The notes under the pieces were generated by a model. That model was given only the letters and a program-made list of their open reading frames with translations. It was not told where the DNA came from and searched no databases. DNA of 64,000 nt from Squalus acanthias (lineage: Eukaryota). The position numbers and the translations under genes were made by a program. Location: positions 95,854,001-95,918,000 of the forward strand of contig CM059431.1 of the NCBI GenBank assembly GCA_030390025.1, written 5' to 3'. This document shows, piece by piece, positions 2,601 through 43,400 of this stretch (position 1 is its first letter; each line of letters begins with the position of its first letter).

Positions 2601-2604
2601 AAAT

Positions 2605-17300: not shown

Positions 17301-18833
17301 ATAAAACAACGGGGGAAACAGCGCCGACCTGATTGGAGACACCAGGAGCGGAACATAAAACAGCGGGGAAACAGCACCGACCTGATTGGAGACACTAGGA
17401 GCGCAACATAAAACAGCGGGGGAAACAGCACCGACCTGATTGGAGACACCAGTGACGGAACATAAAACAGCGGGGGAAACAGCACCGACCTGATTGGAGA
17501 CACTAGGAGCGCAACATAAAACAGCGGGGGAAACAGCACCGACCTGATTGGAGACACCAGTGACGGAACATAAAACAGCTGGGGAAACATCACCGACCAG
17601 ATTGGAGACACCAGTGACGGAACATAAAACAGCGGGGGAAACAGCACCGACCTGATTGGAGACACTAGGAGCGCAACATAAAACAGCGGGGGAAACAGCA
17701 CCGACCTGATTGGAGACACTAGGAGCGGAACATGAAACAGGGGGGAAACAGCGCCGACCTGATTGGAGACACCAGGAGCGGAACATAAAACAGCCGGGGA
17801 AACAGCACCGACCTGATTGGAGACAAAAGCGGCGGAACATAAAAGAGCAGGGAAAACAGCGCCGACCTGATTGGAGACACCAGGAGCGGAACATAAAACA
17901 GCCGGGGAAACAGCACCGACCTTCTTAGAGACACCAGGAGCGGAACATAAAACAGCGGGGGAAACAGCACCGACCTGATTGGAGACACCAGTGGCGGAAC
18001 ATAAAACAGCCGGGGAAACAGCACCGACCTGATTGGAGACACTAGGAGCGGAACCTAAAACAGCGGGGGAAACAGCGCCGACCTGATTGGAGACACCAGG
18101 AGCGGAATCTAAAACAGCCGGGTAAACAGCAGCGACCTGATTAGAGACACTAGGAGCGGAACCTAAAACAGCGGGGGAAACATCACCGACCAGATTGGAG
18201 ACACCAGTGACGGAACATAAAACAGTGGGGGAAACAGCGCCGACCTGATTAGAGACACTAGGAGCGGAACATAAAACAGCGGGGGAAACAGCGCCGACCT
18301 GATTGGAGACACCAGTGACGGAACATAAAACAGCTGGGGAAACATCACCGACCAGATTGGAGACACCAGTGACGGAACATAAAACAGCCGGGGAAACAGC
18401 GCCGACCTGATTGGAGACACCAGTGACGGAACATAAAACAGCGGGGAAACAGCACCGACCTGATTGGAGACACCAGGGGGTAGAAATTAGGTCGCGCCCC
18501 ATTTGGGGCGCAAATATCATCCGGACGCAAATATTAGCGCCTGGCGCTAATTATCGGCACTGACAGGAAACTTCACTTTTACCGCCCCGGGAGGTGAGTG
18601 GAGCGCTAAAGCAGGCGCTGCACACCTCTCTTAAGGCGCAAAGGCCAAGGAGTGAGGCGCTAACTCAGCGCGCAAGCGCAGCGCAGCTGCTGCCAGTTAG
18701 CGAGGGAACACAGACACACTGGCGCCGGACACTTCTTAAAGCGGGGGGGGCCACTTGCTCCCCAGCCACACCCTGCTCATTGCAGCCTTGAATCTCAGCC
18801 TGGAGAGACCTGTAATCCATTTCGCTGCCAAGC

Positions 18834-20765
18834 ATGGAGAGGGTGAGAGAACGCGCTCATCGCTTCACCGAGCGGGCCTTGGATGCTCTGGTTGACACAG
18901 TGGAGCGCAGACGATGTATGCTGTTCCCGGAGAGTGGCAGGAGGCCTTTGCCACGCGAGTTCAGAAGAGTGTGGAGGGAGGTGGCTCAGAGCGTCTCCTC
19001 CAGGAGCATGGTGCCCAGGACCCATACTCAATGCCGCAAAAAGTTCAACGACCTCACTCGGGTCGTCAGGGTGAGTGGCTTTTTCTCAATACCTCTCCAT
19101 CCCTCCATCTCAACCTCACTCTATGGCCAGAGGGTCTTAAAACCCCAATGCACAACACTCATCCAACACCTATGGCCCTTTCATCAAACACACACACACA
19201 TTCCACACTTTGCATACAGTAAGGGCTATTCACCTATGGGAGGCACATCAGGCAAGACCATGGCTGTATACAGTAAGGGCTATTCACCTATGGGAGGCAC
19301 ATTAGGCAAGACCATGGCTGTATACAGTAAGGGCTATTCACCTATGGGAGGCACATCAGGCAAGACCATGGCTGTATACAGTAAGGGCTATTCACCTATG
19401 GGAGGCACATCAGGCAAGACCATGGCTGTATATTTACTCAGATGCTGTCCTTTTTCTTGCAGGCTAAGCTGGCTCATAATAGGAGACAGCAGCAACGGAC
19501 AGATGGAGGGCGGCTTCAGCTGCAACCCCTCAGCGATCTGGAGGAGCGCGTCCACAGGATTGTGGCAAGCCGGGTGATCGGTCCCGTCGCCACTGGAGAC
19601 GCCGACCCCGTTGTGGACAGCAATGGTAAGGTCATCACCTTTTTGTCCTCTGTCCTTCCACTTGTCCCTCACAACACCAGCCTTTGACACTTTCAATCCA
19701 ACTTGCTAACTCGCTGCACTTATTCCTCCCTTACTGCCACCCTGTCCTCACGCTAAAGCCACTCTTGTACCTCCCTGCTTTCAGATGGTGATTCACCAGC
19801 TGAGGAGACGGGCCCTGAAGCTGCCACTGGGAGTGATGCTGCAGCTGAGGAGGAAGAGGAAGCCAGAGCATCAGTGCCACCCTCTCCCGAGGAAGCCCAT
19901 GCCCACACTGGGAACACGCCTTCCCCGGAGGGGAGCAGGGGGGAAGGGGCTGATGATGGTGAAGCTCCAGGACCCAGCGGGCTGCAGCAACGCCATGGGG
20001 GGGGGTAGGGAAGAACGGGGGCCTTCTCCCCAGAGGGAGAGTATGCCAGACACTCCTACTGCAATGGACGCAGAGGAGGAGCGGCTGATTGCAGAAATGA
20101 ACACCCAGGCGGTGGGCATGCACACTGAGCTCATGGGTGCAGTGGGAAGGGTGCCCGATTGCATTGAGTCACTGGCAAGGAGTGTGAAGCACTTCGCTGT
20201 AGCACAGGCGGATGCCACACTAACGCTTAGTGCTGCAATTCAGTCACTGGCTGCCGTGATCCCACCTCTGACTGCTCTCATACAGACTCAGATGGAGGCC
20301 ACGCGAGCACAGACTGCTGCCAACCTCGATGGTTCGTGCACATGTCCCCGGGGCTGTCACCGCGCCGCAGCAGGCCAGCAATCTGTTCTCCGGCAAATTG
20401 CTCCGGATGCTGAAGTGCTGCCCCGTGGGAGTGCCAGTGTGTCGGGCGAGCAGGGAGTTGCTGGCCTCTCTCACGATGACAGCATTCCTGCTGCCAACAC
20501 TGTCACTTCTCCACTGCACTTGCCACCGCCTGTAGGACAGACTGCTGCCGCCCATGCAGAGTTGGTGCAGTCTGCAGCCGGGCCCTCCAGGCCCAGAAGT
20601 GGTCGAGGCCGTCCTTCAGGGGCATCTGCAGTGTCAGGGTCTGACGAGCAGCAGCCTTCCACCAGCCTTGCTGCAGCCACTGAGGTCCCATTACGGAGGA
20701 GCAGTAGGGTTAGAAGGGGGGAAGTGCGCAAGGGAAGGAGATCACCCTCGAAGGGCAAAAAGTAG
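18834..20765 (+). CDS. Harbinger Myb/SANT-like (MADF/trihelix-type) DNA-binding protein; exons 18834-19070, 19463-19625, 19785-20765; one-base frameshift at G9 (19997-20005)
   Basis: Exon 1 RFTERALDALVDTV..LFP..WREVAQSV..RTHTQCRKKFNDL; donors GTGAGT (19071) and GTAAGG (19626); acceptors TTGCAG (19462) and TTTCAG (19784); exon 2 AKLAHNRRQQQRTDGG; 459 aa if the run is G8. Confidence 0.8.
19215..19430 (+). repeat. 4 x 54-bp tandem repeat in intron 1 of the Harbinger Myb gene
   Basis: Unit TACAGTAAGGGCTATTCACCTATGGGAGGCACATCAGGCAAGACCATGGCTGTA starting at 19215, 19269, 19323 and 19377; one C>T at 19303. Confidence 0.95.
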
Positions 20766-21043
20766 GAGGTGTGACAAAATGCTGGTCATTTTTTTATTAT
20801 AGGCCGAGGTTCATGGTCCAACTTTTGTTTAGTGTTTTGGACATTATCTCCAGGTTGTGAGAACCAGTTATGTTATTGACTGTTTTTTTGTGTTTATTTC
20901 TATGAGTTTGTCATGAGGAATTGTAAAATAAATAAGTTTCTGTATTCAAAATATACATGGCTGGTGGTTGGAATTATTGGTGCCTTGGCCGGCTTAGGGG
21001 TTGCGTGCTGGGTTGATTAGTGTTTGTAGCAATGGCAGGGGCC

Positions 21044-22195
21044 CTAGAAGCGGCTTGCTATTAGTCGTTGACGGACGGCCCTTGCAGTTTGACCATTGTG
21101 GGCCGCCCTCCTGCCTTGGTGCTGCTGATGATCATCGTCCTCGTCCTCTTCCTCCTCCTCCTCTGGTGGTGCTACAAAGCCTGGTGGCATTGGCTGGGTC
21201 CTGAGGATTGCCATGTTGTGCAACATGCAGCACACGACTACGAAGTTCGAAACTTGCTCAGGCGAGTACTGCAGGGCTCCTCCGGAATGGTCCAGACAGC
21301 GGAACCGTTGTTTCAGCACGCCGATTGTGCGCTCAATAATGTTCCTGGTTGCTTGATGGCTTTCATTGTACCGCAGCTCAGCAGGGGTGTTTGGCATACG
21401 GAGCGGTGTCATCAGCCAGGTGCTCAATGCGTACCCCTTGTCCCCCAGAAGCCAACCAACTGGCTGTTGCGGTGCTTCGAAAACTTCTGCCACAGCAGTC
21501 TGGCGCAGGATGAAAGCATCGTGGCAGCTGCCCTGATAGTGGGCATTGACAGCGAGTATCACCTGTCTGTGGTCACAGACCAACTGCACATTCAAGGAAT
21601 GGAACCCCTTTCTGTTCCTGAATTCCTCTGCATTCTCTCGCGGAGCACGCAAAGCCACATGCGTGCAGTCAATGGCGCCCTGCACCATGGGGAAGCCCGC
21701 TACCCTCGCAAAGCCCAGAGCACGGTCACGCTGCTTGTCTGGGGTCATAGGGAAAGAGATGAAGTCTCGTCTCCTTCTGAAGAGGGCATTGGTGACCTGC
21801 CGGATGCAGCGATGCACCGCAAACTGGGAGATATTTGCGAGGTCCCCAACAGCAGCTTGGAATGAGCCAGTGGCGTAGAAGTTCAAAGCCACTGTGACCT
21901 TCACTGCCACCGACAGAGACGTCCTGGACCTCAGCTGAGGCTGCAGATCTGGCTGCAGCAGGTGGCAGAGCTCAGTGACCACCTCCTTGCTGAATCGCAG
22001 CCTTCGCAAACACAGCTCCTCGGACATATGGATGTAGGAGAGCTGTTCACGATATACCCTGGGAGGGTAAGCTCTCCTGTACATGCGCCTGATGGCCCTC
22101 CTCCGTCTGGCCATCATTGCCACTCTCTGTCTGCGTCTTGGTATCCTCCGATTCAGCTGGAGCAGGACGACGCCCCCAATCATTGCAGCCCCCAT
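21044..22195 (-). CDS. Harbinger (HARBI1-family, DDE_Tnp_4-type) transposase, intact, 383 aa from ATG 22195
   Basis: Uninterrupted ORF with N-terminal helical region (LRRLRFSKE..VALNFYATG), GAIDCTH, NRKGFHSLNVQLVCD, HDA, LLGDKGY, IIERTIGVLKQRFRCL, CCMLHN and an acidic tail. Confidence 0.93.
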   Translation of the reverse strand: MGAAMIGGVVLLQLNRRIPRRRQRVAMMARRRRAIRRMYRRAYPPRVYREQLSYIHMSEELCLRRLRFSKEVVTELCHLLQPDLQPQLRSRTSLSVAVKVTVALNFYATGSFQAAVGDLANISQFAVHRCIRQVTNALFRRRRDFISFPMTPDKQRDRALGFARVAGFPMVQGAIDCTHVALRAPRENAEEFRNRKGFHSLNVQLVCDHRQVILAVNAHYQGSCHDAFILRQTAVAEVFEAPQQPVGWLLGDKGYALSTWLMTPLRMPNTPAELRYNESHQATRNIIERTIGVLKQRFRCLDHSGGALQYSPEQVSNFVVVCCMLHNMAILRTQPMPPGFVAPPEEEEEEDEDDDHQQHQGRRAAHNGQTARAVRQRLIASRF

Positions 22196-25100
22196 ATTCT
22201 CTTTGCCAGAAAAGTAATGAGGTACAGCAACTAAAGTAGCAACAAAGTTAGGATGAATAGGCAAAACTACCTCACAAAGCGTTGAGTCAATGTAGAAGTC
22301 TCTCTATCTCTCTCTCCGAATCTCTCTCTCTCTCTCAGAACGAGTGGTGCATAAATGTCGACCACAGAAAAAGACAGGAAGAGGCCCCCTTTAAATAGCG
22401 CCCCCCCCCCAGCCCCACACCGATTGATAACGTTCCAGTCTTCCGGTCGTTGGAAGCGCCAGGCGGTAAGTCAGGGGGCGCCACTCAATATCCGCTCCGG
22501 GGCGCCCCAAGGGCGTTGCACCATGGAATGACGTCACAATCTGCGCGCGCAGGTGGTCGCAGCGGTAAGTTTTAGCGCCGCCGCACAATCTCAAGTTAAG
22601 TTCACGAGCGGCGCAAACATCGCTGCGCCCGGGCGTTAGCGGCTTAACGCCCCATTAGCGCCCTCTTAAGGCGCTAACGGGAGGCGCAACCAAGTGAATT
22701 TTTACCCCGAGGAGCGCAACATAAAACAGCGGGGGAAACAGCACCGACCTGATTGGAGACACTGGGTGCGCAACAGAAAACAGCGGGGAAACAGCACCGA
22801 CCTGATTGGAGACACTAGGAGCGGAACATAAAACAGCGGGGGAAACAGCACCGACCTGATTGGAGACACTAGGAGCGCAACATAAAACAGCGGGGAAACA
22901 GCACCGACCTGATTGGAGACACTAGGAGCGGAACATGAAACAGCGGGGAAAACAGCACCGACCTGATTGGAGACGCCAGTGACGGAACATAAAACAGCGG
23001 GGAAACAGCACCGAACTGATTAGAGACACCAGGAGCGGAACATAAAACAGCGGGGGAAACAGCTCCGACCTGATTGGAGACACCAGGAGCGGAACATAAA
23101 ACAGCCGGGGAAACAGCGCCGACCTGATTGGAGACACCAGTGACGGAACATAAAACAGCGGGGGAAACAGCGCCGACCTGATTGGAGACACCAGTGACGG
23201 AACATAAAACAGCGGGGGAAACAGCACCGAACTGATTAGAGACACCAGGAGCGGAACATAAAACAGCCGGGGAAACAGCACCGACCTTCTTAGAGACACC
23301 AGGAGCGGAACATAAAACAGCGGGGGAAACAGCTCCGACCTGATTGGAGACACCAGGAGCGGAACATAAAACAGCCGGGGAAACAGCACCGACCTTCTTA
23401 GAGACACCAGGAGCGGAACATAAAACAGCCGGGGAAACAGCACTGACCTGATTGGAGACACCAGGAGCGGAACATAAAACAGCGGGGAAACAGCACAGAC
23501 CTGATTGGAGACACTAACAGCGGAACATAAAACAACAGGGGAAACAGCACCGACCTGATTGGAGACACTAACAGCGGAACATAAAACAGCGGGGAAACAG
23601 CACCGACCTGATTGGAGACACTAGGAGCGCAACAGAAAACAGCGGGGAAACAGCACCGACCTGATTGGAGACACCAGTGACGGAACATAAAACAGCGGGG
23701 GAAACAGCAGCGACCTGATTGGAGACACCAGTGACGGAACATAAAACAGCGGGGGAAACAGCATCGACCTGATTGGAGACACCAGTGACGGAACATAAAA
23801 CAGCCGGGGAAACAGCACCGACCTGATTGGAGACACCAGGAGCGGAACATAAAACAGCGGGGGAAACAGCACCGACCTGATTGGAGACACCAGTGACGTG
23901 ACATAAAACAGCGGGGGAAACAGCACCGACCTGATTGGAGACACCAGTGACGGAACATAAAACAGCGGGGAAACTGCACCGACCTGATTGGGAACACCAG
24001 TGACGGAACATAAAACAGCGGGGGAAACAGCACCGACCTGATTGGAGACACCAGTGACGGAACATAAAACAGCCGGGGAAACAGCACCGACCTGATTGGA
24101 GACACCAGTGACGGAACATAAAACAGCGGGGGAAACAGCACCGACCTGATTGGAGACACCAGTGACGGAACATAAAACAGCGGGGGAAACAGCGCCGACC
24201 TGATTGGAGACACCAGGAGCGGAACATAAAATAGCCGGGGAAACAGCACCGACCTTCTTAGAGACACCAGGAGCGGAACATAAAACAGCGGGGGAAACAG
24301 CACCGACCTGATTGGAGACACCAGCAGCTGAACATAAAACAACAGGGGAAACAGCACCGACCTGATTGGAGACACTCGGAGCGGAACATAAAACAGCGGG
24401 GGAAACAGCACCGACCTGACTGGAGACACCAGGAGCGGAACATTAAACAGCGGGGGAAACAGCACCGACCTGATTGGAGACACCAGTGGCGACCGAACAT
24501 AAAACAGCGGGGGAAACAGCGCCGACCTGACTGGAGACACCAGGAGCGGAACATTAAACAGCGGGGGAAACAGCACTGACCTGACTGGAGACACCAGGAG
24601 CGGAACATAAAACAGCGGGGGAAACAGCACCGACCTGATTGGAGACACTAACAGCGGAACATAAAACAACAGGGGAAACAGCACCGAACTGATTGGAGAC
24701 ACTGGGAGCGCAACAGAAAACAGCGGGGAAACAGCACCGACCTGATTGGAGACACTAGGAGGGCAACAGAAAACAGCGGGGAAACAGCACCGACCTGATT
24801 GGAGACACCAGTGACGGAACATAAAACAGCGGGGGAAACAGCAGCGACCTGATTGGAGACACCAGTGACGGAACATAAAACAGCGGGGAAACAGCAGCGA
24901 CCTGATTGGAGACACCAGTGACGTGACATAAAACAGCGGGGGAAACAGCACCGACCTGATTGGAGACACCAGGAGCGGAACATAAAACAGCGGGAAACAG
25001 CGCCGACCTGATTGGAGACACCAGTGACGGAACATAAAACAGCGGGGAAACAGCGCAGACCTGATTGGAGACACCAGTGGTGGCCGAACATAAAACTGCG

Positions 25101-27613
25101 GGGTAACAGCGCCGACCTGATTGGAGACACTAGGAGCGGAACATTAAACAGCGGGGAAACAGCGCCGACCTGACTGGAGACACCAGGAGCGGAACATTAA
25201 ACAGCGGGGGAAACAGCACTGACCTGATTGGGAACAGCAGGAGCGGAACATAAAACAGCAGGGGAAACAACGACGACCTGATTGGAGATACCAGTGACGG
25301 AACATAAAACAGCCGAGGAAACAGCGCCGACCTGATTGCGAACACCAGGAGCGGAACATAAAACAGCGGGGAAACAGCGCCGACCTGACTGGAGACACCA
25401 GGAGCGGAACATTAAACAGCGGGGGAAACAGCACTGACCTGACTGGAGACACCAGGAGCGGAACATTAAACAGCGGGGAAAACAGCACCGACCTGATTGG
25501 AGACACTAACAGCGGAACATAAAACAGCGGGGGAAACAGCACCGACCTGATTGGAGACACCAGTGGCGGCCGAACATAAAACAGCCGAGGAAACAGCGCC
25601 GACCTGATTGGGAACAGCAGGAGCGGAACATAAAACAGCGGGGGAAACAGCACCGACCTGATTGGGAACAGCAGGAGCGGAACATAAAACAGCGGGGAAA
25701 CAGCACCGACCTGATTGGGAAGAGCAGGAGCGGAACATAAAACAGTGGGGGAAACAGCACCGACCTGATTGGGAACAGCAGGAGCGGAACATAAAACAGC
25801 GGGGAAACAGCACCGACCTGATTGGGAAGAGCAGGAGCGGAACATAAAACAGCGGGGAAACAGTACCGACCTGATTGGGAAGAGCAGGAGCCGCACATGA
25901 AACAGCGGGGGAAACAGCACCGACCTGATTGGAGACACTAGGAGCGGAACATAAAACAGCGGGGGAAACAGCACCGACCTGATTGGAGACACTAGGAGCG
26001 GAACATAAAACAGCGGGGGAAACAGCACCGACCTTCTTAGAGACACCAGGAGCGGAACATAAAACAGCGGGGGAAACAGCACCGACCTGATTGGAGACAC
26101 CAGCAGCGGAACATAAAACAGCGGGGGAAACAGCACCGACCTGATTGAAGACACCAGGAGCGGAGCATAAAACAGCGGGGGAAACAGCACCGACCTGACT
26201 GGAGACACCAGGAGCGGAACATAAAACAGCGGGGAAAACAGCACCGACCTGATTGGAGACACCAGGAGCGGAACATAAAACAGCGGGGGAAACAGCAACG
26301 ACCTGATTGGAGACACCAGGGGCGGAACATTAAACAGCGGGGGAAACAGCACCGACCTGATTGGGAACACCAGGAGCGGAACATAAAACAGCGGGGGAAA
26401 CTGCGCCGACCTGATTGGAGACACCAGTGACGGAAAATAAAACAGCGGGGGAAACAGCACCGACCTGATTGGAGACACTAGGAGCGGAACATAAAACCGC
26501 GGGGGAAACAGCGCCGACCTGATTGGGAACACCAGGATCGGAACATAAAACAGCGGGGAAACTGCGGCGACCTGATTGGAGACACCAGCAGCGGAACATA
26601 AAACAGCGGGGGAAACAGCGCAGACATGATTGGAGACACCAGTGACGGAACATAAAACAGCGGGGAAACAGCACCGACCTGATTGGAGACACCAGGAGCG
26701 GAGCACAAAACAGCGGGGGAAACAGCACCGACCTGATTGGGAACACCAGGAGCGGAACCTAAAACAGCGGGGGAAACAGTACCGACCTGACTGGAGACAC
26801 CAGGAGCGGAACATTAAACAGCGGGGGAAACAGCACCGACCTGATTGGGAACACCAGGAGCGGAACATACAACAGCGGGGGGAAACAGCACCGACCTGAC
26901 TGGAGAGACCAGGAGCGGAACATAAAACAGCCGGGGAAACAGCACCGACCTGATTAGAGACACCAGCGGCGGAACTTAAAACAGCGGTGGAAACAGCGCC
27001 GACCTGATTAGAGACACCAGTGGCGGAACATAAAACAGCGGGGGAAACAGCGCCGACCTGAGTGGAGATACCAGTGACGGAAAATAAAACAGCCGAGGAA
27101 ACAGCGCCGACCTAATTGCGAACACCAGGAGCGGAACATAAAACAGCCGGGGAAACAGCGCCGACCTGATTGGAGATACCAGGAGCGGAACATAAAACAG
27201 CGGGGAAACAGCGCCGACCTGATTGCGAACACCAGGAGCGGAACATAAAACAGCGGGGGAAACTGCGCCGACCTGATTGCGAACACCAGGAGCGGAACAT
27301 AAGACAGCGGGGGAAACTGCGCCGACCTGATTGGAGACACCAGGAGCGGAACATAAAACAGCGGGGGAAACAGCGCCGACCTGATTGGAGACACTAGGAG
27401 CGGAACATAAGACAGCGGGGGAAACAGCGCCGACCTAAATGGGAACACCAGGAGCGGAACTTAAAACAGCGAGGGAAACATCACCGACCTGATTGGAGAC
27501 ACCAGGAGCGGATCATAAAACAGCGGGGGAAACAGCGCCGACCTGATTGGAGACACCAGGAGCATATGATAAAACAGCCGGGGAAACAGCACCGACCTGA
27601 TTGGGAACACCAG

Positions 27614-28506
27614 GGGGGAAAAATTCAGTCGCGCCCCATTTGGGGCGCAAATATCGGCCGGGCGCAAAGATTAACGCCTGGCGCTAATTATCGCCACCGA
27701 CTGCAAACTTCACTTTTATCGCCCCTGGAGGTGATTGCAGCGCTAAATTAGGCGCTTCACACCTGTCTTAAGGCGCAAAGGCCGAGGAGCGAGGCGCTAT
27801 CTCAGAGCGCTGGCGAAGCTCATGTGATGTCAGTCAGCAATGGAACACACACACAATGGCACGGGCCAGTTCTTAAAGGGGATGGTTAATCTTGCTTTCC
27901 ATCCACATCCTGCTCATTGCAGCCTTGAATCTCGGCCTGGAGAGACCTGCACATCAAATCTGCTGGAAAGAACAATGGAGAGTACCAGGCCAAGAGCTCA
28001 GAGTGCAGCCCCCACAGTCTCTGCTAAATCGATACAAGGAATAGCAAATCAAAATGGACCTGCAAAGTGCTGCTCAGTACCCAAAACTCCTTCACATAAC
28101 GTTGAATCTCTCCAGAAGTCTCTACCTCTCTCTCTCAGAATGCGTAGTTCAAAAATGGCACCAACAATAAAAGGCAGGAAGCGGTCACCTTTAAATAGCG
28201 CTCCCACTTTCCCTTCATGACTGCAGAACGCTCCCATCAACCTGTCGTTGCTAGCGTCAGGCGGTAAGGCAGGGGGCGCCACTCAATAACCGCTCCGGGG
28301 CGATACCGGGGCGTTGCGCACTCGAGTGACGTCATGATCTGCCGGCGCAGGAGATCGTGGCGGTAGTGTTCAGCGCCGCCGCAAAATGTCTAGTTAATTT
28401 CGCGAGCGGCGCAAACTTCGCCGCGCCCGGGCGCTAGCTCCTTTGCGCCCCATTAGCGCCCTCTTCAGGCGCTAACGGGAGGCGCAACCAACTGAATTTT
28501 TCCCCC
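27614..28506 (+). mobile_element. Harbinger MITE family A, array copy 1 (893 bp)
   Basis: Perfect 16-bp TIR GGGGGAAAAATTCAGT, TSD CAG, ends homologous to 18477-22708. Confidence 0.95.
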
Positions 28507-29805: not shown

Positions 29806-30698
29806 GGGGGAAAAATTCAGTCGCGCCCCATTTGGGGCGCAAATATCGGCCGGGCGCAAAGATTAGCGCCTGGCGCTAATTATCGCCACCGACTGCAAAC
29901 TTCACTTTTATCGCCCCTGGAGGTGATTGCAGCGCTAAATTAGGCGCTTCACACCTGTCTTAAGGCGCAAAGGCCGAGGAGCGAGGCGCTATCTCAGAGC
30001 GCTGGCGAAGCTCATGTGATGTCAGTCAGCAATGGAACACACACACAATGGCACGGGCCAGTTCTTAAAGGGGATGGTTAATCTTGCTTTCCATCCACAT
30101 CCTGCTCATTGCAGCCTTGAATCTCGGCCTGGAGAGACCTGCACATCAAATCTGCTGGAAAGAACAATGGAGAGTACCAGGCCAAGAGCTCAGAGTGCAG
30201 CCCCCACAGTCTCTGCTAAATCGATACAAGGAATGGCAAATCAAAATGGACCTGCAAAGTGCTGCTCAGTACCCAAAACTCCTTCACATAACGTTGAATC
30301 TCTCCAGAAGTCTCTACCTCTCTCTCTCAGAATGCGTAGTTCAAAAATGGCACCAACAATAAAAGGCAGGAAGCGGTCACCTTTAAATAGCGCTCCCACT
30401 TTCCCTTCATGACTGCAGAACGCTCCCATCAACCTGTCGTTGCTAGCGTCAGGCGGTAAGGCAGGGGGCGCCACTCAATAACCGCTCCGGGGCGATACCG
30501 GGGCGTTGCGCACTCGAGTGACGTCATGATCTGCCGGCGCAGGAGATCGTGGCGGTAGTGTTCAGCGCCGCCGCAAAATGTCTAGTTAATTTCGCGAGCG
30601 GCGCAAACTTCGCCGCGCCCGGGCGCTAGCTGCTTTGCGCCCCATTAGCGCCCTCTTCAGGCGCTAACGGGAGGCGCAACCAACTGAATTTTTCCCCC
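29806..30698 (+). mobile_element. Harbinger MITE family A, array copy 2 (893 bp)
   Basis: Near-identical to 27614-28506, same TIR, same TSD CAG, same flanking monomer variants. Confidence 0.95.
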
Positions 30699-32900
30699 CA
30701 GGAGCGGAACATAAAACAGCGGGGGAAACAGCGCCGACCTGATTGGAGACACCAGGAGCGTATGATAAAAAAGCCGGGGAAACAGCACCGACTGATTGGA
30801 GACACCAGTGGCCGAACATAAAACAGCCGGGGAAACAGCGCCGACCTGATTGGAGACACCAGGAGCGGAACATAAAACAGCGGGGGAAACAGCACCGACC
30901 TGATTGGAGACACCAGGAGCGGAACATACAACAGCGAGGGAAACAGCACCGACCTGATTGGGAACACCAGGAGCGGAACATACAACAGCGGGAGAAACAG
31001 CACCGACCTGATTGGAGACACCAGTGGCGGCCGAACATAAAACAGCGGGGGAAACAGCACCGACCTGATTGGAGACACCAGTGGCGACCGAACATAAAAC
31101 AGTGGGGAAACAGCACCGACCTGATTGGAGACACCAGTGACGGAACATAAAACAGCCGAGGAAACAGCGCCGACCTGATTGCGAACACCAGGAGCGGAAC
31201 ATAAAACAGCGGGGGAAACTGCGCCGACCTGATTGGAGACACCAGTGACGGAAAATAAAACAGCAGGGGAAACAGCACCGAACTGATTGGAGACACTAGG
31301 AGCGGAACATAAAACCGCGGGGGAAACAGCGCCGACCTGATTGGGAACACCAGGATCGGAACATAAAACAGCGGGGAAACTGCGGCGACCTGATTGGAGA
31401 CACCAGCAGCGGAACATAAAACAGCGGGGGAAACAGCGCCGACCTGATTGGAGACACCAGGAGCGGAGCACAAAACAGCGGGGGAAACAGCACCGACCTG
31501 ATTGGGAACACCAGGAGCGGAACCTAAAACAGCGGGGGAAACAGTACCGACCTGACTGGAGACACCAGGAGCGGAACATTAAACAGCGGGGGAAACAGTA
31601 CCGACCTGATTGGGAACACCAGGAGCGGAACATACAACAGCGGGGGGAAACAGCACCGACCTGACTGGAGACACCAGGAGCGGAACATTAAACAGCGGGG
31701 GAAACAGCACCGACCTGATTGGGAACACCAGTGACGTAACATAAAACAGCCGGGGAAGCAGCGCCGACCTGATTGGGAACACCAGGAGTGGAACATAAAA
31801 CAGCGGGGGAAACAGCATTGACCTGATTGGGAACACCAGGAAAGGAACATAAAACAGCGGGGAAACAGCGCCGACCTGATTGGAGACACCAGCGGCGGAA
31901 CATAAAACAGCCGGGGAAACAGCACCGACCTGATTAGAGACACCAGCGGCGGAACATAAAACAGCGGTGGAAACAGCGCCGACCTGATTAGAGACACCAG
32001 TGGCGGAACATAAAACAGCGGGGAAACAGCACCGATCTGATTGGAGATACCAGTGACGGAAAATAAAACAGCCGAGGAAACAGCGCCGACCTAATTGCGA
32101 ACACCAGGAGCGGAACATAAAACAGCCGGGGAAACAGCGCCGACCTGATTGGAGATACCAGGAGCGGAACATAAAACAGCGGGGAAACAGCGCCGACCTG
32201 ATTGGAGACACCAGCAGCGGAACATAAAACAGCGGGGGAAACAGCACCGACCTGATTGGAGACACCAGGAGCGGAACATTAAACAGCCGGGGAAACAGCG
32301 CCGACCTGATTGGAGACACCAGGAGCGGAACATAAAACAGCGGGGAAACTGCGCCGACCTGATTGGAGACACCAGCAGCGGAACATAAAACAGCGGGGGA
32401 AACAGCACCGACCTGATTGGAGACACCAGGAGCGGAACATTAAACAGCGGGGGAAACAGCACCGACCTGATTGGAGACACCAGGAGCGGAACATTAAACA
32501 GCGGGGGAAACAGCACCGACCTGATTGGAGACACCAGGAGCGGAACATTAAACAGCGGGGGAAACAGCGCCGACCTGATTGGGAACACCAGTGACGGAAC
32601 ATAAAACAGCGGGGGAAACAGCGCCGACCTGATTGGGAACACCAGGAGCGGAACATACAACAGCGGGAGAAACAGCACCGACCTGATTGGAGACACCAGT
32701 GGCGGCCGAACATAAAACAGCGGGGGAAACAGCACCGACCTGATTGGAGACACCAGTGGCGACCTGAAGATAAAACAGCGGGGAAACAGCACCGACCTGA
32801 TTGGAGACACCAGTGACGGAACATAAAACAGCCGAGGAAACAGCGCCGACCTGATTGCGAACACCAGGAGCGGAACATAAAACAGCGGGGGAGACACTAG

Positions 32901-33661
32901 GGGGTAAAAATTGAGTCGCGCCCCATTTGGGGTGCTAACCTCGCCGGGGCGCGACTTTTAGCGCCCCGAAAAAATTAGCGGCCCCGCGCCGGAACTTCAG
33001 TGGTTGCGCCCCAAGAGGGAAGCGGGGCGCAACTGGAAGCAGCCCGCATCCCTCTTGGGGCGCTGCGAGTGAATATCCTGGCGCTACGTGCCGCAGCGCC
33101 ACGCGCTGCGGCACGTCGCGCCGCGGTATTGCAGGCCTTCCTCCCCTTCTTAAAGGGGAGGGACCCTGCGCAGCGCGAACCGGGGCCCAGCTGGGCCCCC
33201 AGGGATCGGGAGTGCCGGCAAAAGAGCCCGGCACTCAAGAGAAGTGCCGGGCTCTTGGAGCGCAGCCGGCACTTCACGGTGGGGGGGCTTCACGGGGGCC
33301 GGGGGCAGGTGCTGGCAGGCGGCCAGCAACAAAAATGGCCGCCTGCCACCTCCGCTTTAAATATCGCCGCCCCGGCCGCACGTACGCCTCACTGAACCCG
33401 TCGGACATAGCGTCTGGCGGTAAATCAGGGGGCGCGACTGAAGATCACGGCCGGGGCGCGAGCGGGGTGCTGCGCACGGCGATGACGTCATCGCCGGCGG
33501 CGCAGCGCCACAGGCCGCTACCGGCTGCCGCCGCCGCTAACCTCCCACTAAATTTTTCGGGAGGCGTGGGCGGCGCTGCGCCCGGGCGTTAGCTGCTTTA
33601 CGCCCCATTAGCGCCCTCTTAAGGCGCTAACGGGAGGCGCAAGCAGCTGAATTTTTCCCCC
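32901..33661 (+). mobile_element. Harbinger MITE family B (761 bp, very GC-rich)
   Basis: Ends GGGGTAAAAATTGAG / CTGAATTTTTCCCCC; TSD TAG (32898-32900, 33662-33664); termini shared with family A but different interior. Confidence 0.92.
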
Positions 33662-35065
33662 TAGGAGCGGAACATAAAACCGCGGGGGAAACAGCGCCGA
33701 CCTGATTGGGAACACCAGGATCGGAACATAAAACAGCGGGGAAACGGCGGCGACCTGATTGGAGACACAAGCAGCGGAACATAAAACAGCGGGGGAAACA
33801 GCGCCGACCTGATTGGAGACACCAGTGACGGAACATAAAACAGCGGGGAAACAGCACCGACCTGATTGAGGACACCAGGAGCGGAGCACAAAACAGCGGG
33901 GGAAACAGCACCGACCTGATTGGGAACACCAGGAGCGGAACATAAAACAGCGGGGGAAACAGTACCGACCTGATTGGGAACACCAGGAGCGGAACATACA
34001 ACAGCGGGGGGAAACAGCACCGACCTGACTGGAGACACCAGGAGCAGAACATTAAACAGCGGGGTAAACAGCACCGACCTGATTGGGAACACCAGTGACG
34101 TAACATAAAACAGCCGGGGAAGCAGCGCCGACCTGATTGGGAACACCAGGAGTGGAACATAAAACAGCGGGGGAAACAGCATTGACCTGATTGGGAACAC
34201 CAGGAAAGGAACATAAAACAGCCGGGGAAACAGCGCCGACCTGATTGGGAACACCAGGATCGGAACATAAAACAGCGGGGAAACTGCGGCGACCTGATTG
34301 GAGACACCAGCAGCGGAACATAAAACAGCGGGGGAAACAGCGCCGACCTGATTGGAGACACCAGTGACGGAACATAAAACAGCGGGGAAACAGCACCGAC
34401 CTGATTGGAGACACCAGGAGCGGAGCACAAAACAGCGGGGGAAACAGCACCGACCTGATTGGGAACACCAGGAGCGGAACCTAAAACAGCGGGGGAAACA
34501 GTACCGACCTGACTGGAGACACCAGGAGCGGAACATTAGACAGCGGGGGAAACAGCACCGACCTGATTGGGAACACCAGGAGCGGAACATACAACAGGGG
34601 CGGGAAACAGCACCGACCTGACTTGAGACACCAGGAGCGGAACATTAAAATGCGGGGTAAACAGCACCGACCTGATTGGGAACACCAGTGACGTAACATA
34701 AAACAGCCGGGGAAACAGCGCCGACCTGATTGTGAACACCAGGAGCGGAACGTAAAACAGCGGGGGAAACTGCGCCGACCTGATTGGAGACACCAGGAGC
34801 GGAACATAAAACAGCGGGGGAAACAGCGCCGACCTGATTGGAGACACTAGGAGCGGAACATAAGACAGCGGGGGAAACAGCGCCGACCTAAATGGGAACA
34901 CCAGGAGCGGAACTTAAAACAGCCGGGGAAACAGCGCCGACCTGATTGGAGATACCAGGAGCGGAACATAAAACAGCGGGGAAACAGCACCGACCTGATT
35001 GGAGACACCAGGAGCATATGATAAAACAGCCGGGGAAACAGCACCGACCTGATTGGGAACACCAG

Positions 35066-35904
35066 GGGGGAAAAATTCAGTCGCGCCCCATTTGGGGCGC
35101 AAATATCGGCCGGGCGCAAAGATTAGCGCCTGGCGCTAATTATCGCCACCGACTGCAAACTTCACTTTTATCGCCCCTGGAGGTGATTGCAGCGCTAAAT
35201 CAGGCGCTTCACACCTGTCTTAAGGCGCAAAGGCCGAGGAGCGAGGCGCTACCTCAGAGCGCTGGCGAAGCTCATGTGATGTCAGTCAGCAATGGAACAC
35301 ACACACAATGGCACGGGCCAGTTCTTAAAGGGGATGGTTAATCTCGCTTTCCATCCACATCCTGCTCATTGCAGCCTTGAATCTCGGCCTGGAGAGACCT
35401 GCACATCAAATCTGCTGGAAAGAACAATGGAGAGTACCAGGCCAAGAGCTCAGAGTGCAGCCCCCACAGTCTCTGCTAAATCGATACAAGGAATGGCAAA
35501 TCAAAATGGACCTGCAAAGTGCTGCTCAGTACCCAAAACTCCTTCACATAACGTTGAATCTCTCCAGAAGTCTCTACCTCTCTCTCTCAGAATGCGTAGT
35601 TCAAAAATGGCACCAACAATAAAAGGCAGGAAGCGGTCACCTTTAAATAGCGCTCCCACTTTCCGTTCATGACTGCAGAACGCTCCCATCAACCTGTCGT
35701 TGCTAGCGTCAGGCGGTAAGGCAGGGGGCGCCACTCAATAACCGCTCCGGGGCGATACCGGGGCGTTGCGCACTCGAGTGACGTCATGATCTGCCGGCGC
35801 AGGAGATCGTGGCGGTTGTGTTCAGCGCAGCCGCAAAATCTCTAGTTAATTTCGCGAGCGGCGCAAACTTCGCCGCGCCCGGGCGCTAGCTGCTTTGCGC
35901 CCCA
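35066..35904 (+). mobile_element. Harbinger MITE family A, array copy 3, right TIR deleted
   Basis: Matches copy 1 up to ttgcgcccca, then joins satellite gtgac. Confidence 0.92.
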
Positions 35905-37144
35905 GTGACTGAAAATAAAACAGCCGAGGAAACAGCGCCGACCTAATTGCAAACACCAGGAGCGGAACATAAAACAGCCGGGGAAACAGCGCCGACCTGA
36001 TTGGAGATACCAGGAGCGGAACATAAAACAGCAGGGAAACAGCGCCGACCTGATTGCGAACACCAGGAGCGGAACATAAAACAGCGGGGTAAACTGCGCC
36101 GACCTGATTGGAGACACCAGTGACGGAAAATAAAACAGCAGGGGAAACAGCACCGAACTGATTGGAGACACTAGGAGCGGAACATAAAACCGCGGGGGAA
36201 ACAGCGCCGACCTGATTGGGAACACCAGGATCGGAACATAAAACAGCGGGGAAACTGCGGCGACCTGATTGGAGACACCAGCAGCGGAACATAAAACAGC
36301 GGGGGAAACAGCGCCGACCTGATTGGAGACACCAGTGACGGAACATAAAACAGCGGGGAAACAGCACCGACCTGATTGGAGACACCAGGAGCGGAGCACA
36401 AAACAGCGGGGGAAACAGCACTGACCTGATTGGGAACACCAGGAGCGGAACCTAAAACAGCGGGGGAAACAGTACCGACCTGACTGGAGACACCAGGAGC
36501 GGAACATTAGACAGCGGGGGAAACAGCACCGACCTGATTGGGAACACCAGGAGCGGAACATACAACAGGGGCGGGAAACAGCACCGACCTGACTTGAGAC
36601 ACCAGGAGCGGAACATTAAAATGCGGGGTAAACAGCACCGACCTGATTGGGAACACCAGTGACGTAACATAAAACAGCCGGGGAAACAGCGCCGACCTGA
36701 TTGTGAACACCAGGAGCGGAACGTAAAACAGCGGGGGAAACTGCGCCGACCTGATTGCGAACACCAGGAGCGGAACATAAGACAGCGGGGGAAACTGCGC
36801 CGACCTGATTGGAGACACCAGGAGCGGAACATAAAACAGCGGGGGAAACAGCGCCGACCTGATTGGAGACACTAGGAGCGGAACATAAGACAGCGGGGGA
36901 AACAGCGCCGACCTAAATGGGAACACCAGGAGCGGAACTTAAAACAGCCGGGGAAACAGCGCCGACCTGATTGGAGACACTAGGAGCGGAACATAAGACA
37001 GCGGGGGAAACAGCGCCGACCTAAATGGGAACACCAGGAGCGGAACTTAAAACAGCGGGGAAACAGCACCGACCTGATTGGAGACACCAGGAGCATATGA
37101 TAAAACAGCCGGGGAAACAGCACCGACCTGATTGGGAACACCAG

Positions 37145-37984
37145 GGGGGAAAAATTCAGTCGCGCCCCATTTGGGGCGCAAATATCGGCCGGGCGCAAAG
37201 ATTAGCGCCTGGCGCTAATTATCGCCACCGACTGCAAACTTCACTTTTATCGCCCCTGGAGGTGATTGCAGCGCTAAATCAGGCGCTTCACACCTGTCTT
37301 AAGGCGCAAAGGCCGAGGAGCGAGGCGCTACCTCAGAGCGCTGGCGAAGCTCATGTGATGTCAGTCAGCAATGGAACACACACACAATGGCACGGGCCAG
37401 TTCTTAAAGGGGATGGTTAATCTCGCTTTCCATCCACATCCTGCTCATTGCAGCCTTGAATCTCGGCCTGGAGAGACCTGCACATCAAATCTGCTGGAAA
37501 GAACAATGGAGAGTACCAGGCCAAGAGCTCAGAGTGCAGCCCCCCACAGTCTCTGCTAAATCGATACAAGGAATGGCAAATCAAAATGGACCTGCAAAGT
37601 GCTGCTCAGTACCCAAAACTCCTTCACATAACGTTGAATCTCTCCAGAAGTCTCTACCTCTCTCTCTCAGAATGCGTAGTTCAAAAATGGCACCAACAAT
37701 AAAAGGCAGGAAGCGGTCACCTTTAAATAGCGCTCCCCCTTTCCCTTCATGACTGCAGAACGCTCCCATCAACCTGTCGTTGCTAGCGTCAGGCGGTAAG
37801 GCAGGGGGCGCCACTCAATAACCGCTCCGGGGCGATACCGGGGCGTTGCGCACTCGAGTGACGTCATGATCTGCCGGCGCAGGAGATCGTGGCGGTAGTG
37901 TTCAGCGCCGCCGCAAAATGTCTAGTTAATTTCGCGAGCGGCGCAAACTTCGCCGCGCCCGGGCACTAGCTGCTTTGCGCCCCA
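37145..37984 (+). mobile_element. Harbinger MITE family A, array copy 4, right TIR deleted
   Basis: Same truncation junction as copy 3. Confidence 0.92.
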
Positions 37985-39587
37985 GTGACGGAAAATAAAA
38001 CAGCCGAGGAAACAGCGCCGACCTAATTGCGAACACCAGGAGCGGAACATAAAACAGCCGGGGAAACAGCGCCGACCTGATTGGAGATACCAGGAGCGGA
38101 ACATAAAACAGCGGGGAAACTGCGCCGACCTGATTGCGAACACCAGGAGCGGAACATAAAACAGCGGGGGAAACTGCGCCGACCTGATTGGAGACACCAG
38201 TGACGGAAAATAAAACAGCAGGGGAAACAGCACCGAACTGATTGGAGACACTAGGAGCGGAACATAAAACCGCGGGGGAAACAGCGCCGACCTGATTGGG
38301 AACACCAGGATCGGAACATAAAACAGCGGGGAAACTGCGGCGACCTGATTGGAGACACCAGCAGCGGAACATAAAACAGCGGGGGAAACAGCGCCGACCT
38401 GATTGGATACACCAGTGACGGAACATAAAACAGCGGGGAAACAGCACCGACCTGATTGGAGACACCAGGAGCGGAGCACAAAACAGCGGGGGAAACAGCA
38501 CCGAACTGATTGGAGACACCAGTGACGGAACATAAAACAGCGGGGAAACAGCACCGACCTGACTGGAGACACCAGGAGCGGAACATTAAACAGCGGGGGA
38601 AACAGCACCGACCTGATTGGGAACACCAGGAGCGGAACATACAACTGGGGGGGGAAACAGCACCGACCTGACTGGAGACACCAGGAGCGGAACATTAAAC
38701 AGCGGGGTAAACAGCACCGACCTGATTGGGAACACCAGTGACGTAACATAAAACAGCCGGGGAAACATGCCGACCTGATTGGGAACACCAGGAGTGGAAC
38801 ATAAAACAGCGGGGGAAACAGCATTGACCTGATTGGGAACACCAGGAAAGGAACATAAAACAGCGGGGAAACAGCGCCGACCTAATTGGAGACACCAGCG
38901 GCGGAACATAAAACAGCCGGGGAAACAGCACCGACCTGATTAGAGACACCAGCGGCGGAACATAAAACAGCGGGGGAAACAGCGCCGACCTGATTGGAGA
39001 TACCAGTGACGGAAAATAAAACAGCCGAGGAAACGGCGCCGACCTAATTGCGAACACCAGGAGCGGAACATAAAACAGCCGGGGAAACAACGCCGACCTG
39101 ATTGGAGATACCAGGAGCGGAACATAAAACAGCGGGGAAACAGCGCCGACCTGATTGCGAACACCAGGAGCGGAACATAAAACAGCGGGGGAAACTGCGC
39201 CGACCTGATTGCGAACACCAGGAGCGGAACATAAGACAGCGGGGGAAACTGCGCCGACCTGATTGGAGACACCAGGAGCGGAACATAAAACAGCGGGGGA
39301 AACAGCGCCGACCTGATTGGAGACACTAGGAGCGGAACATAAGACAGCGGGGGAAACAGCGCCGACCTAAATGGGAACACCAGGAGCGGAACTTAAAACA
39401 GCGGGGGAAACATCACCGACCTGATTGGAGACACCAGGAGCGGATCATAAAACAGCGCCGACCTGAATGGGAACACCAGGAGCGGAACATAAAACAGCGG
39501 GGCAAACAGCACCGACCTGATTGGAGACACCAGGAGCGTATGATAAAACAGCCGGGGAAACAGCACCGACCTGATTGGGAACACCAG

Positions 39588-40459
39588 GGGGGAAAAATTC
39601 AGTCGCGCCCCATTTGGGGCGCAAATATCGGCCGGGCGCAAAGATTAGCGCCTGGCGCTAATTATCGCCACCGACTGCAAACTTCACTTTTATCGCCCCT
39701 GGAGGTGATTGCAGCGCTAAATCAGGCGCTTCACACCTGTCTTAAGGCGCAAAGGCCGAGGAGCGAGGCGCTATCTCAGAGCGCTGGCGAAGCTCATGTA
39801 ATGTCAGTCAGCAATGGAACACACACACAATGGCACGGGCCAGTTCTTAAAGGGGATGGTTAATCTTGCTTTCCATCCACATCCTGCTCATTGCAGCCTT
39901 GAATCTCGGCCTGGAGAGACCTGCACATCAAATCTGCTGGAAAGAACAATGGAGAGTACCAGGCCAAGAGCTCAGAGTGCAGCCCCCAAAGTCTCTGCTA
40001 AATCAATACAAGGAATGGCAAATCAAAATGGACCTGCAAAGTGCTGCTCAGTACCCAAAACTCCTTCACATAACGTTGAATCTCTCCAGAAGTCTCTACC
40101 TCTCTCTCTCAGAATGCGTAGTTCAAAAATGGCACCAACAATAAAAGGCAGGAAGCGGTCACCTTTAAATAGCGCTCCCCCTTTCCCTTCATGACTGCAG
40201 AACGCTCCCATCAACCTGTCGGCAGGGGGCGCCACTCAATAACCGCTCCGGGGCGATACCGGGGCGTTGCGCACTCGAGTGACGTCATGATCTGCCGGCG
40301 CAGGAGATCGTGGCGGTAGTGTTCAGCGCCGCCGCAAAATGTCTAGTTAATTTCACGAGCGGCGCAAACTTCGCCGCGCCCGGGCGCTAGCTGCTTTGCG
40401 CCCCATTAGCGCCCTCTTCAGGCGCTAACGGGAGGCGCAACCAACTGAATTTTTCCCCC
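39588..40459 (+). mobile_element. Harbinger MITE family A, array copy 5 (872 bp, 21-bp internal deletion)
   Basis: Both TIRs and TSD CAG present; lacks gttgctagcgtcaggcggtaa at about 40220. Confidence 0.95.
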
Positions 40460-43400
40460 CAGGAGCGGAACATAAAACAGCGGGGAAACAGCGCCGACCT
40501 GATTGGAGACACCAGGAGCGTATGATAAAACAGCCGGGGAAACAGCACCGACTGATTGGAGACACCAGTGGCCGAACATAAAAAAGCCGGGGAAACAGCG
40601 CCGACCTGATTGGAGACACCAGGAGCGAAACATAAAACAGCGAGGGAAACAGCACCGACCTGATTGGAGACACCAGGAGCGGAACATAAAACAGCGGGGG
40701 AAACAGCGCCGACCTGATTGGAGACACCAGGAGTGGAACATAAAACAGCAGGGAAACAGCGCCGACCTGATTGGAGACACCAGGAGCGGAACATAAAACA
40801 GCGGGGAAACAGCGCCGACCTGATTGGAGATACCAGTGACGGAACATAAAACAGCCGGGGAAACAGCGCCGACCTGATTGGAGACACCAGTGGCGGCCGA
40901 ACATAAAACAGCGGGGAAACAGCACCGACCTGATTCGAGACACTAGTGACGGAACATAAAACAGCGGGGAAACAGCGCCGAACTGATTGGAGACACTAGG
41001 AGCGGAACATAAAACCGCGGGGGAAACAGCGCCGACCTGATTGGGAACACCAGGATCGGAACAAAAAACAGCGGGGAAACTGCGGCGACCTGATTGGAGA
41101 CACCAGCAGCGGAACATAAAACAGCGGGGGAAACAGCGCCGACCTGATTGGAGACACCAGTGACGGAACATAAAACAGCGGGGAAACAGCACCGACCTGA
41201 TTGGAGACACCAGGAGCGGAGCACAAAACAGCGGGGGAAACAGCACCGACCTGATTGGGAACACCAGGAGCGGAACCTAAAACAGCGGGGGAAACAGTAC
41301 CGACCTGACTGGAGACACCAGGAGCAGAACATTAAACAGCGGGGGAAACAGCACCGACCTGATTGGAGACACCAGGAGCGTATGATAAAACAGCCGGGGA
41401 AACAGCGCCGACCTGATTGGAGACACCAGGAGCGAAACATAAAACAGCGGGGGAAACAGCACCGACCTGATTGGAGACACCAGGAGCGGAACATAAAACA
41501 GCAGGGAAACAGCGCCGACCTGATTGGAGACACCAGTGGCGGCCGAACATAAAACAGCGGGGGAAACAACACCGACCTGATTGGAGACACCAGTGGCGAC
41601 CGAACATAAAACAGCGGGGAAACAGCACCGACCTGATTGGAGACACCAGTGACGGAACATAAAACAGCCGAGGAAACAGCGCCGACCTGATTGCGAACAC
41701 CAGGAGCGGAACATAAAACAGCGGGGGAAACTGCGCCGACCTGATTGGAGACACCAGTGACGGAAAATAAAACAGATGGGGAAACAGCGCCGAACTGATT
41801 GGAGACACTAGGAGCGGAACATAAAACCGCGGGGGAAACAGCGCCGACCTGATTGGGAACACCAGGATCGGAACATAAAACAGCGGGGAAACAGCGCCGA
41901 CCTGATTGGAGACACCAGGAGCGGAACCTAAAACAGCGGGGGAAACAGCACCGACCTGATTGGGAACACCAGCAGCGGAACATAAAACAGCGGGGAAACA
42001 GCGCCGACCTGATTGGAGACACCAGTGACGGAACATAAAACAGCGGGGAAACAGCACCGACCTGATTGGAGACACCAGGAGCGGAACATAAAACAGCGGG
42101 GAAACAGCACCGACCTGATTGGAGACACCAGGAGCGGAACCTAAAACAGCGGGGAAACAGCACCGACCTGATTGGGAACACCAGGAGCGGAACATTAAAC
42201 AGCGGGGTAAACAGCACCGACCTGATTGGGAACACCAGTGACGTAACATAAAACAGCCGGGGAAGCAGCGTCGACCTGATTGGGAACACCAGGAAAGGAA
42301 CATAAAACAGCGGGGGAAACAGCGCCGACCTGATTAGAGACACCAGTGGCGGAACATAAAACAGCGGGGGAAACAGCGCCGACCTGATTGGAGATACCAG
42401 TGACGGAAAATAAAACAGCCGAGGAAACAGCGCCGACCTAATTGCGAACACCAGGAGCGGAACATAAAACAGCGGGGGAAACTGCGCCGACCTGATTGCG
42501 AACACCAGGAGCGGAACATAAGACAGCGGGGGAAACTGCGCCGACCTAAATGGGAACACCAGGAGCGGATCATAAAACAGCGGGGGAAACAGCGCCGACC
42601 TGAATGGGAACACCAGGAGCGGAACATAAAACAGCGGGGCAAACAGCACCGACCTGATTGGAGACACTAGCGGCGGAACATAAAACAGCCGGGGAAACAG
42701 CACCGACCTGATTAGAGACACCAGCAGCGGAACATAAAACAGCGGGGGAAACAGCACCGACCTGATTAGAGACACCAGCGGCGGAACATAAAACAGCCGG
42801 GGAAACAGCACCGACCTGATTGGAGACACACGCGGCGGAACATTAAACAGCCGAGGAAACAGCACCGACCTGATTGGAGACACCAGCGGCGGAACATAAA
42901 ACAGCCGGGGAAACAGCGCCGACCTGATTGGAGACAACAGCGGCGGAACATAAAACAGCGGGGGAAACAGCGCCGACCTGATTGGGAACAGCAGGAGCGG
43001 AACATAAAACAGCGGGGGAAACAGCGCCGACCTGATTGAAGACACAAGTGGCGGCGGAACATAAAACAGCGGGGGAAACAGCACCGACCTGATTGGAGAC
43101 ACCAGCAGCGGAACATAAAACAGCGGGGAAACAGCACCGACCTGATTGGAGACACCAGCAGCGGAACATAAAACGGCGGGGGAAACAGCACCGACCTGAT
43201 TGGGAACACCAGGAGCGGAACCTAAAACAGCGGGGAAACAGCGCCGACCTGATTGGGAACACCAGGAGCGGAACATAAAACAGCCGGGGAACAGCGCCGA
43301 CCTGATTGGAGACACCAGGAGCGGAACATAAAACAGCCGGGGAAACAGCGCCGACCTGATTGGAGACACTAGCAGCGGAACATAAAACAGCCGGGGAAAC

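Follow-up and report, generated by a model that had tools for sequence, protein, structure and literature searches.

We analysed a window of 64,000 nucleotides of the Squalus acanthias genome (GenBank assembly GCA_030390025.1, contig CM059431.1, positions 95,854,001 to 95,918,000 of the forward strand; coordinates below count from the first letter of this stretch), in which a long array of a 54-bp satellite is interrupted by DNA transposons with related ends. All seven interruptions of the array (7/7) belong to one PIF/Harbinger family, stand in one orientation and lie at the same nucleotide of the monomer, ACAC-YAG-GAGCG, with a 3-bp duplication. This pattern is real and non-random; dedicated homing to the satellite is unsupported by the evidence at hand. 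We consider it likely that a known extended target preference met a monomer carrying the preferred motif, and that duplication within the array then multiplied what had been inserted, the satellite being a passive carrier.

The satellite array occupies positions 11566 to 51691 on the plus strand, as delimited by TRF, by BLAST against the monomer and by an nhmmer map, and comprises about 575 monomers (575 nhmmer hits), all in one orientation; the 613 high-scoring segment pairs (HSPs) between the window and the monomer are likewise all on the plus strand (613/613). After subtraction of the seven insertions, about 30.8 kb of monomer sequence is left. Successive monomers are spaced 53-58 bp apart, the exceptions being the insertion gaps, a single interval of 52 bp, a 42-bp monomer and a short monomer beside one of the insertions. 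Around the insertion point the monomer reads ..GGAGACACCAGGAGCGG.., and two of its variants, ACACTAGGAGCG and ACACCAGGAGCG, occur in 53 and 189 monomers, respectively. A higher-order structure is laid over the 54-bp unit in the form of long internal duplications, of which one pairs positions 40465-47476 with 44668-51691 (offset 4203 bp, 93%) and another pairs 33822-37151 with 35902-39229 (offset 2080 bp, 93%).

Only seven non-monomer stretches of at least 15 bp were found within the array by BLAST against the monomer, and their limits were set by reading the junctions and aligning the ends. The largest (18477-22708, plus strand; AUT below) is an autonomous element of 4232 bp with the ends GGGGTAGAAATTAGG... 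and ...GAATTTTTACCCC, flanked by the triplet CAG on the left (18474-18476) and GAG on the right (22709-22711). [quoted passage not shown] Five are copies of MITE-A: A1 (27614-28506; 893 bp), with a perfect 16-bp terminal inverted repeat (TIR), GGGGGAAAAATTCAGT, and the target site duplication (TSD) CAG/CAG; A2 (29806-30698; CAG/CAG), 99.7% identical to A1 and a segmental duplicate with the same flanking monomer variants; A3 (35066-35901) and A4 (37145-37981), whose 3' ends are truncated, that of A4 at the break of A3, leaving the left CAG only; and A5 (39588-40459; 872 bp; CAG/CAG). The sixth, MITE-B (32901-33661; 761 bp), has the TSD TAG/TAG and lies within a ACACTAGG monomer, a common variant. 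Two further members of the MITE-A family lie outside the satellite on the plus strand, in AT-rich unique DNA: one at 59154-60045, with the TSD TTA/TTA and the right flank ATGTTT, and an older one at 6779-7665, with TAT/TAT and the right flank GTGTTT.

These elements are related through their ends. The homology between five aligned copies breaks off precisely at the TIRs, and 3-bp direct repeats follow outside (five left and five right ends). By BLAST, positions 1-336 of A1 correspond to 1-336 of AUT and positions 494-893 to 3835-4232 of AUT, in colinear order; the ends of MITE-B match AUT on the same strand, the left end with 90.6% identity across 32 bp and the right end with 93.2% across 88 bp, and most of its interior (approximately positions 53-508) gave no BLAST match to AUT or MITE-A. 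Motifs of the form GGCGC/GCGCC cluster at both ends of AUT, MITE-A and MITE-B, in AUT within the first ~250 bp and the last ~330 bp, and by analogy with the zebrafish element Harbinger3_DR they are likely candidates for the binding sites of a Myb protein. An earlier note on this DNA had described three elements with shared termini at ACAC[CAG/TAG]GAGCG in one orientation, which the junctions and the end alignment bear out, and had seen no other class of transposon in about 31 kb of monomers, in agreement with our BLAST comparisons, where each of the seven interruptions belonged to this family and no other class of transposable element was seen in the array. Its statement that each element duplicates the triplet holds for MITE-A and MITE-B and needs a correction for AUT, whose right-hand copy is GAG and not CAG.

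The monomer immediately left of MITE-B (32874-32896) lacks 20 bp (GGGGGA-GACAC), and the resulting string is unique in the window. Shortened monomers are rare, with only two among the ~575, this one and the 42-bp monomer at 39390, and the deletion hints at a break-repair event tied to the insertion of MITE-B.

AUT carries two genes. The transposase (21044-22195, minus strand) is a single open exon of 383 amino acids that matches PF13359 (DDE_Tnp_4; E 9.9e-38) and PF04827 (E 5.4e-10), the DDE_Tnp_4 / Plant_tran type, and aligns over its full length, from MGA.. to ..LIASRF, with seven relatives from sharks and rays; its catalytic triad is presumably formed by acidic residues of the motifs IDCTH, LGDKGY and IIERTIG. 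All of its 66 best protein matches come from sharks and rays bar one unnamed cluster, the highest identity being 66% and that of the top-scoring match 65%. A CT-rich stretch of low complexity lies upstream of the transposase start (22299-22337) and draws very deep, unrelated microsatellite contigs in public runs X8 and X9. The second gene, the Myb/SANT-like ORF1 (18834-20765, plus strand), matches PF13873 (Myb_DNA-bind_5; E 1.4e-8). Its first reading frame stops at a canonical GTGAGT donor, and a model of three exons (18834-19070, 19463-19630 and 19785-20765, stop included) joins in frame at GT..AG junctions (intron 1, GTGAGT..TTGCAG; intron 2, GTCATC..TTTCAG) into a predicted protein of 461 amino acids. 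Exons 2 and 3 are placed by these splice motifs and by two relatives (P0121 and P0008) that extend in tblastn into the second and third blocks of AUT; exon 1 matched one protein only. Within intron 1, a unit of ~60 bp is repeated in tandem about four times (19250-19440).

ORF1 therefore looks intact if spliced as modelled, and need not be repaired, as the earlier note had supposed. From the DDE_Tnp_4 transposase, the Myb gene, the short TIRs and the 3-bp TSDs, we assign the elements to the PIF/Harbinger (PHIS) superfamily, in accord with the earlier identification of a Harbinger family whose transposase and Myb partner are encoded within the array. AUT is apparently an intact autonomous copy, and may still be active.

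How many insertions struck the array is a separate matter from how many copies it now holds. The rare monomer variant TATGATAAAACAG occurs seven times in the window, five of these directly to the left of a MITE-A; the five copies also have unusual monomers in common farther out on both sides and are mutually 98.7-99.7% identical, and A3 and A4 have one 3' truncation in common and near-identical right flanks. Because they share these rare flanking variants and are nearly identical, the five MITE-A copies in the array are one insertion multiplied by array duplication. Overall flank identity proved uninformative as a test of ancestry, since array segments taken in phase are all about 86-92% alike (ungapped diagonals, fixed 216-bp blocks), and it was the rare monomer variants that settled the shared ancestry of the flanks. 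A search for paralogous empty sites likewise yielded no specific paralogue, returning 400 bridging HSPs per insertion at 89-92% for the three insertions. We count at least two and at most three independent events in the array, AUT, MITE-A and, probably, MITE-B, which we take as the third event and hold less firmly than the other two. The earlier figure of at least three independent events is thereby turned into a maximum, two of them firm and the third probable.

With the two copies in unique DNA, the window offers five independent insertion sites, and these can be compared with the target described for vertebrate Harbingers. Harbinger3_DR is reported to integrate into the consensus AAACACCWGGTCTTT, or, in other accounts, vertebrate PIF/Harbingers have a 15-bp extended target (PMC2836001, PMC3016246, PMC3432063). 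The satellite site matches this consensus over eight contiguous bases, ACACCAGG (ACACCWGG), whose central CWG is the duplicated triplet, and each monomer contains this core a single time, at the very point of insertion. When the published 15-mer was scored at all 54 circular positions of the monomer on both strands, the observed site was the single best (9/15). Across the real array, 306 of 30,576 positions (1.0%) reach 9/15, and the commonest 15-mers among them, AGACACCAGGAGCGG (106) and GAACACCAGGAGCGG (71), are the observed site.

The sites outside the array resemble the same target. The empty site of the 59154 copy, ATTTAT-TTA-ATGTTT, scores 8/15 (P = 0.043), and that of the 6779 copy, TAACCC-TAT-GTGTTT, scores 10/15 (P = 0.0028), both against the background of the unique DNA in the window. 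Overall, the five sites score 9, 9, 8, 8 and 10 of 15, placing them in the top 0.3-4.3% of background with one half-site matching in each case (Fisher P = 0.0012 for the two sites in unique DNA and 5e-6 for all five), and in 5/5 a half-site (A/G)A(A/G)ACA(C/T) abuts the duplicated triplet directly. The classical Harbinger TSD is TWA. The array holds 655 T[AT]A triplets, and TAA is available in nearly every monomer, yet none of them (0) was used as an insertion site; the flank, and not the triplet, appears to drive the choice of site.

Several points weigh against this explanation of the shared position. Five sites are few, and the motif test was run after the resemblance had been noticed, on a motif that itself came from the literature. 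The match to the consensus covers one half-site only (9/15), three other positions of the monomer score 8/15, and three of the five TSDs (TAG, TTA and TAT) are not CWG. The satellite insertions have the ACAC half-site at the ORF1-side end and both copies in unique DNA have it at the other end, and the motif leaves the common orientation of the three array insertions unexplained, for which chance would give 1/4. Kinship to Harbinger3_DR, and to the NuwaI group discussed below, was judged by anatomy and target motif only. Finally, the flanks contain at least five fragments of open reading frames of the reverse transcriptase/endonuclease type found in long interspersed nuclear elements (LINEs), and the array contains none, which could mean that the array is truly selective for this Harbinger family; fast turnover of the array could be an alternative cause.

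If these last points are given more weight, satellite arrays may draw a disproportionate share of insertions genome-wide and keep intact autonomous copies, as a de facto safe harbour in which the motif recurs about 290 times per 32 kb, and a single transposase may in addition accept CAG, TAG, TTA and TAT beside a single ACAC half-site. We find this joint reading doubtful. Were it true, the split between PIF/Harbinger, NuwaI and NuwaII by TSD would be blurred, and the shared orientation and the lack of LINEs would be real signals.

A stronger form of the same idea, put forward in the earlier note, holds that the family evolved to recognise the monomer, so that satellite arrays are its main landing pad and safe harbour. 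In its favour are the placing of three elements on one nucleotide with a common orientation, the seemingly intact autonomous copy within the array, and 30.8 kb of monomers free of any other class of transposable element between flanks that hold LINE fragments. However, the distribution of the family speaks otherwise. Copies are not confined to the repeat even within the window, where unique DNA holds two of the five independent insertions, whose TSDs differ and whose sites have only a 6-bp half-site in common with the monomer. Insertions are about as dense in the array, with 3 events over 30.8 kb of satellite, as outside it, with 2 over 23.9 kb of flank, and the site can be accounted for by the preference already published for a fish Harbinger.

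The family is also hugely abundant. When four public runs were compared, 39,435 contigs of run X1 (organism A) matched AUT, at identities from above 99% to below 90%; judged by these matches, the family is enormous and divergent in organism A. Among the matches listed, one contig of run X9 follows AUT exactly to its right TIR (22708) and continues with 42 further letters that are unlike the satellite flank. Taken together, these observations make dedicated homing unlikely, and the claim of a site-specific transposon with the satellite as its safe harbour is unsupported.

Other aspects of the public data concern the spread of the family. More than half of the sampled 31-letter words of AUT occur in runs labelled as seven organisms (A-G, 10 studies), and organisms C and D yield near-identical contigs, with 0-6 differences per 200-700 bp; near-identity across organisms suggests that the family was recently active in a group of related species or has spread horizontally. 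Contig joints that skip 18474-22710, and similar ones, were set aside as plain satellite contigs, and a search of metagenome contigs with an IUPAC pattern of the TIR gave 0 matches.

It could also be supposed that a single ancestral insertion was spread by array duplication, and that MITE-A and MITE-B formed in place, with internal deletion, gene conversion or aborted gap repair as the means; the earlier note had named such an origin as a finding that would overturn its proposal. Array duplication certainly multiplied MITE-A five-fold, all elements point the same way, MITE-A runs colinear with AUT at both ends, and the rare 20-bp deletion in the monomer abutting MITE-B suggests break repair there. 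But over the shared ends MITE-A is only 76.8-78.4% identical to the resident AUT in the multiple alignment (84% over 337 bp and 80% over 405 bp in BLAST pieces), as compared with 95.3% between A1 and the 59154 copy and 87.6% between A1 and the 6779 copy, both of which have the overall structure of MITE-A, lie in unique DNA and carry TSDs of their own. A maximum-likelihood tree, (AUT,(U6779,(U59154,(A1-A5)))), with supports of 90/95 and 94/98, nests the array copies within these dispersed copies (U6779 and U59154), from which we infer that the array MITE-A belongs to a dispersed family of MITEs, as one of its later members, and did not arise from the neighbouring AUT by deletion. In addition, the TAG on both sides of MITE-B would need two parallel changes from CAG, and an open transposase frame in AUT seems unlikely after the divergence that an in-situ ancestor would imply. 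We therefore regard formation in place as improbable.

Mere coincidence, in which unrelated insertions happened upon one monomer position, is scarcely credible: there are only three events, two of them firmly independent, but the chance of a shared position is still (1/54)^2 = 3.4e-4 for three events, the order of magnitude given in the earlier note for random placement, and 1/54 = 0.019 for two, and TWA triplets are on offer in nearly every monomer and were never used.

The flanks of the array contain other elements. Non-long-terminal-repeat retrotransposon fragments (RVT_1, Exo_endo_phos_2) lie at 947-4242, 53354-54801 and 61257-62042. A second, different and broken Harbinger-like element of about 2.4 kb is found in the right flank (54853-57250), inside a LINE reverse transcriptase; it has the TIRs CAAGGGGCAATTTTCCCA and, as the reverse complement, CAAGGGGGCGATTTTCCCA, nested subterminal inverted repeats, and a flanking 5-bp direct repeat, GAGTA. 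It retains a fragment of a Myb-like frame (55114-55383, plus strand) and transposase fragments in several frames (55502-56620, minus strand; DDE_Tnp_4, E 5.5e-8). Near the right end of the window, TRF reports a 30-bp tandem repeat of 4.6 copies (63355-63491).

The explanation that we favour, an extended target preference followed by array duplication, can be laid out as a sequence of steps. The array would have been struck at least twice, and probably three times, by members of an abundant, dispersed Harbinger-type family (PHIS, NuwaI-like). The Myb-like ORF1 protein would bring the transposase to the element ends, as shown for Harbinger3_DR, and the transposase would pick its target by sequence beyond the duplicated triplet, namely an (A/G)A(A/G)ACAC half-site beside a YWR triplet, the preferred half-site being the core of the published Harbinger3_DR target AAACAC-CWG-GTCTTT. 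Because the monomer contains the motif once (AGACAC-CAG-G), every insertion into the array would fall on the same nucleotide, with duplication of CAG, or of TAG in ACACTAGG variant monomers. One MITE-A insertion would then have become five through segmental duplications of about 2.1 kb, one copy having suffered a 3' truncation that was duplicated again.

The zebrafish element Harbinger3_DR, whose reconstruction PMC3016246, PMC3432063 and PMC2836001 credit to Sinzelle et al. 2008, encodes an ORF1 protein that is described as binding the TIRs and interacting with the transposase (PMC2836001). As far as these accounts describe it, it resembles the family studied here in its 3-bp duplication and apparently in its extended target, and the satellite site aligns with that target over ACACCWGG without a shift, the duplicated triplet being the central CWG. 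In contrast to Harbinger3_DR, only half of the near-palindromic target is matched here, TAG, TTA and TAT triplets are used as well, and the nearest protein relatives come from sharks and rays, at no more than 66% identity.

The NuwaI group (Han et al. 2015, PMC4482050) is characterized there by CWG as the TSD, TIRs that in most cases begin with GGG, two genes (DDE and Myb/SANT) and autonomous copies averaging ~4.46 kb, and forms one clade with NuwaII, whose target is C-TNA-G; the carriers of NuwaI named in that account are bony fish (12 species) and invertebrates (4), and cartilaginous fish are not among them. By anatomy alone AUT is alike, with GGGG(T/G)A.. termini, two genes, 4232 bp and a CWG triplet. 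The triplets nevertheless depart from these definitions: a CWG TSD is found in 2/5 independent insertions (AUT and the array MITE-A), the others having TAG, TTA and TAT; a single MITE family uses CAG, TTA and TAT, its copies with TTA and TAT strictly fitting neither group as defined in that account; and C-TAG-G at MITE-B is the NuwaII pattern. Group borders based on the TSD are thus blurred in this family, and the occurrence of CAG, TTA and TAT in one MITE family calls into question a classification of PHIS groups that relies on the TSD alone. In maize PIF and rice mPing/Pong, too, targets are described as being chosen by bases beyond the 3-bp TSD, with a 9-bp preference (PMC2836001); the plant elements differ in using TWA triplets set within another 9-bp context.

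The phylogenetic setting is of interest in its own right. A 2022 survey (PMC9179366) reports no Harbingers in the elephant shark, suggests a loss in cartilaginous fish and calls for other cartilaginous fish to be surveyed. A very abundant, intact-looking two-gene Harbinger with its nearest protein relatives all in sharks and rays bears on that suggested loss, which in the part of the survey concerned rests on the elephant shark alone.

Among the papers listed in our literature search, none dealt with a Harbinger tied to a satellite. Other transposable elements do insert at one nucleotide of tandem repeats, such as R1/R2 in 28S ribosomal DNA (rDNA), the piggyBac-type Pokey in rDNA and Dada in small-RNA genes, and essentially all of their known copies lie in the one target. 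The family described here differs in this respect, for within one window two of its five independent insertions are found outside the repeat. The array is, on our reading, a natural illustration of how an extended target preference, combined with a motif present in a satellite monomer, can generate apparent homing, and a caution that a recurrent insertion position in tandem repeats need not mean dedicated targeting.

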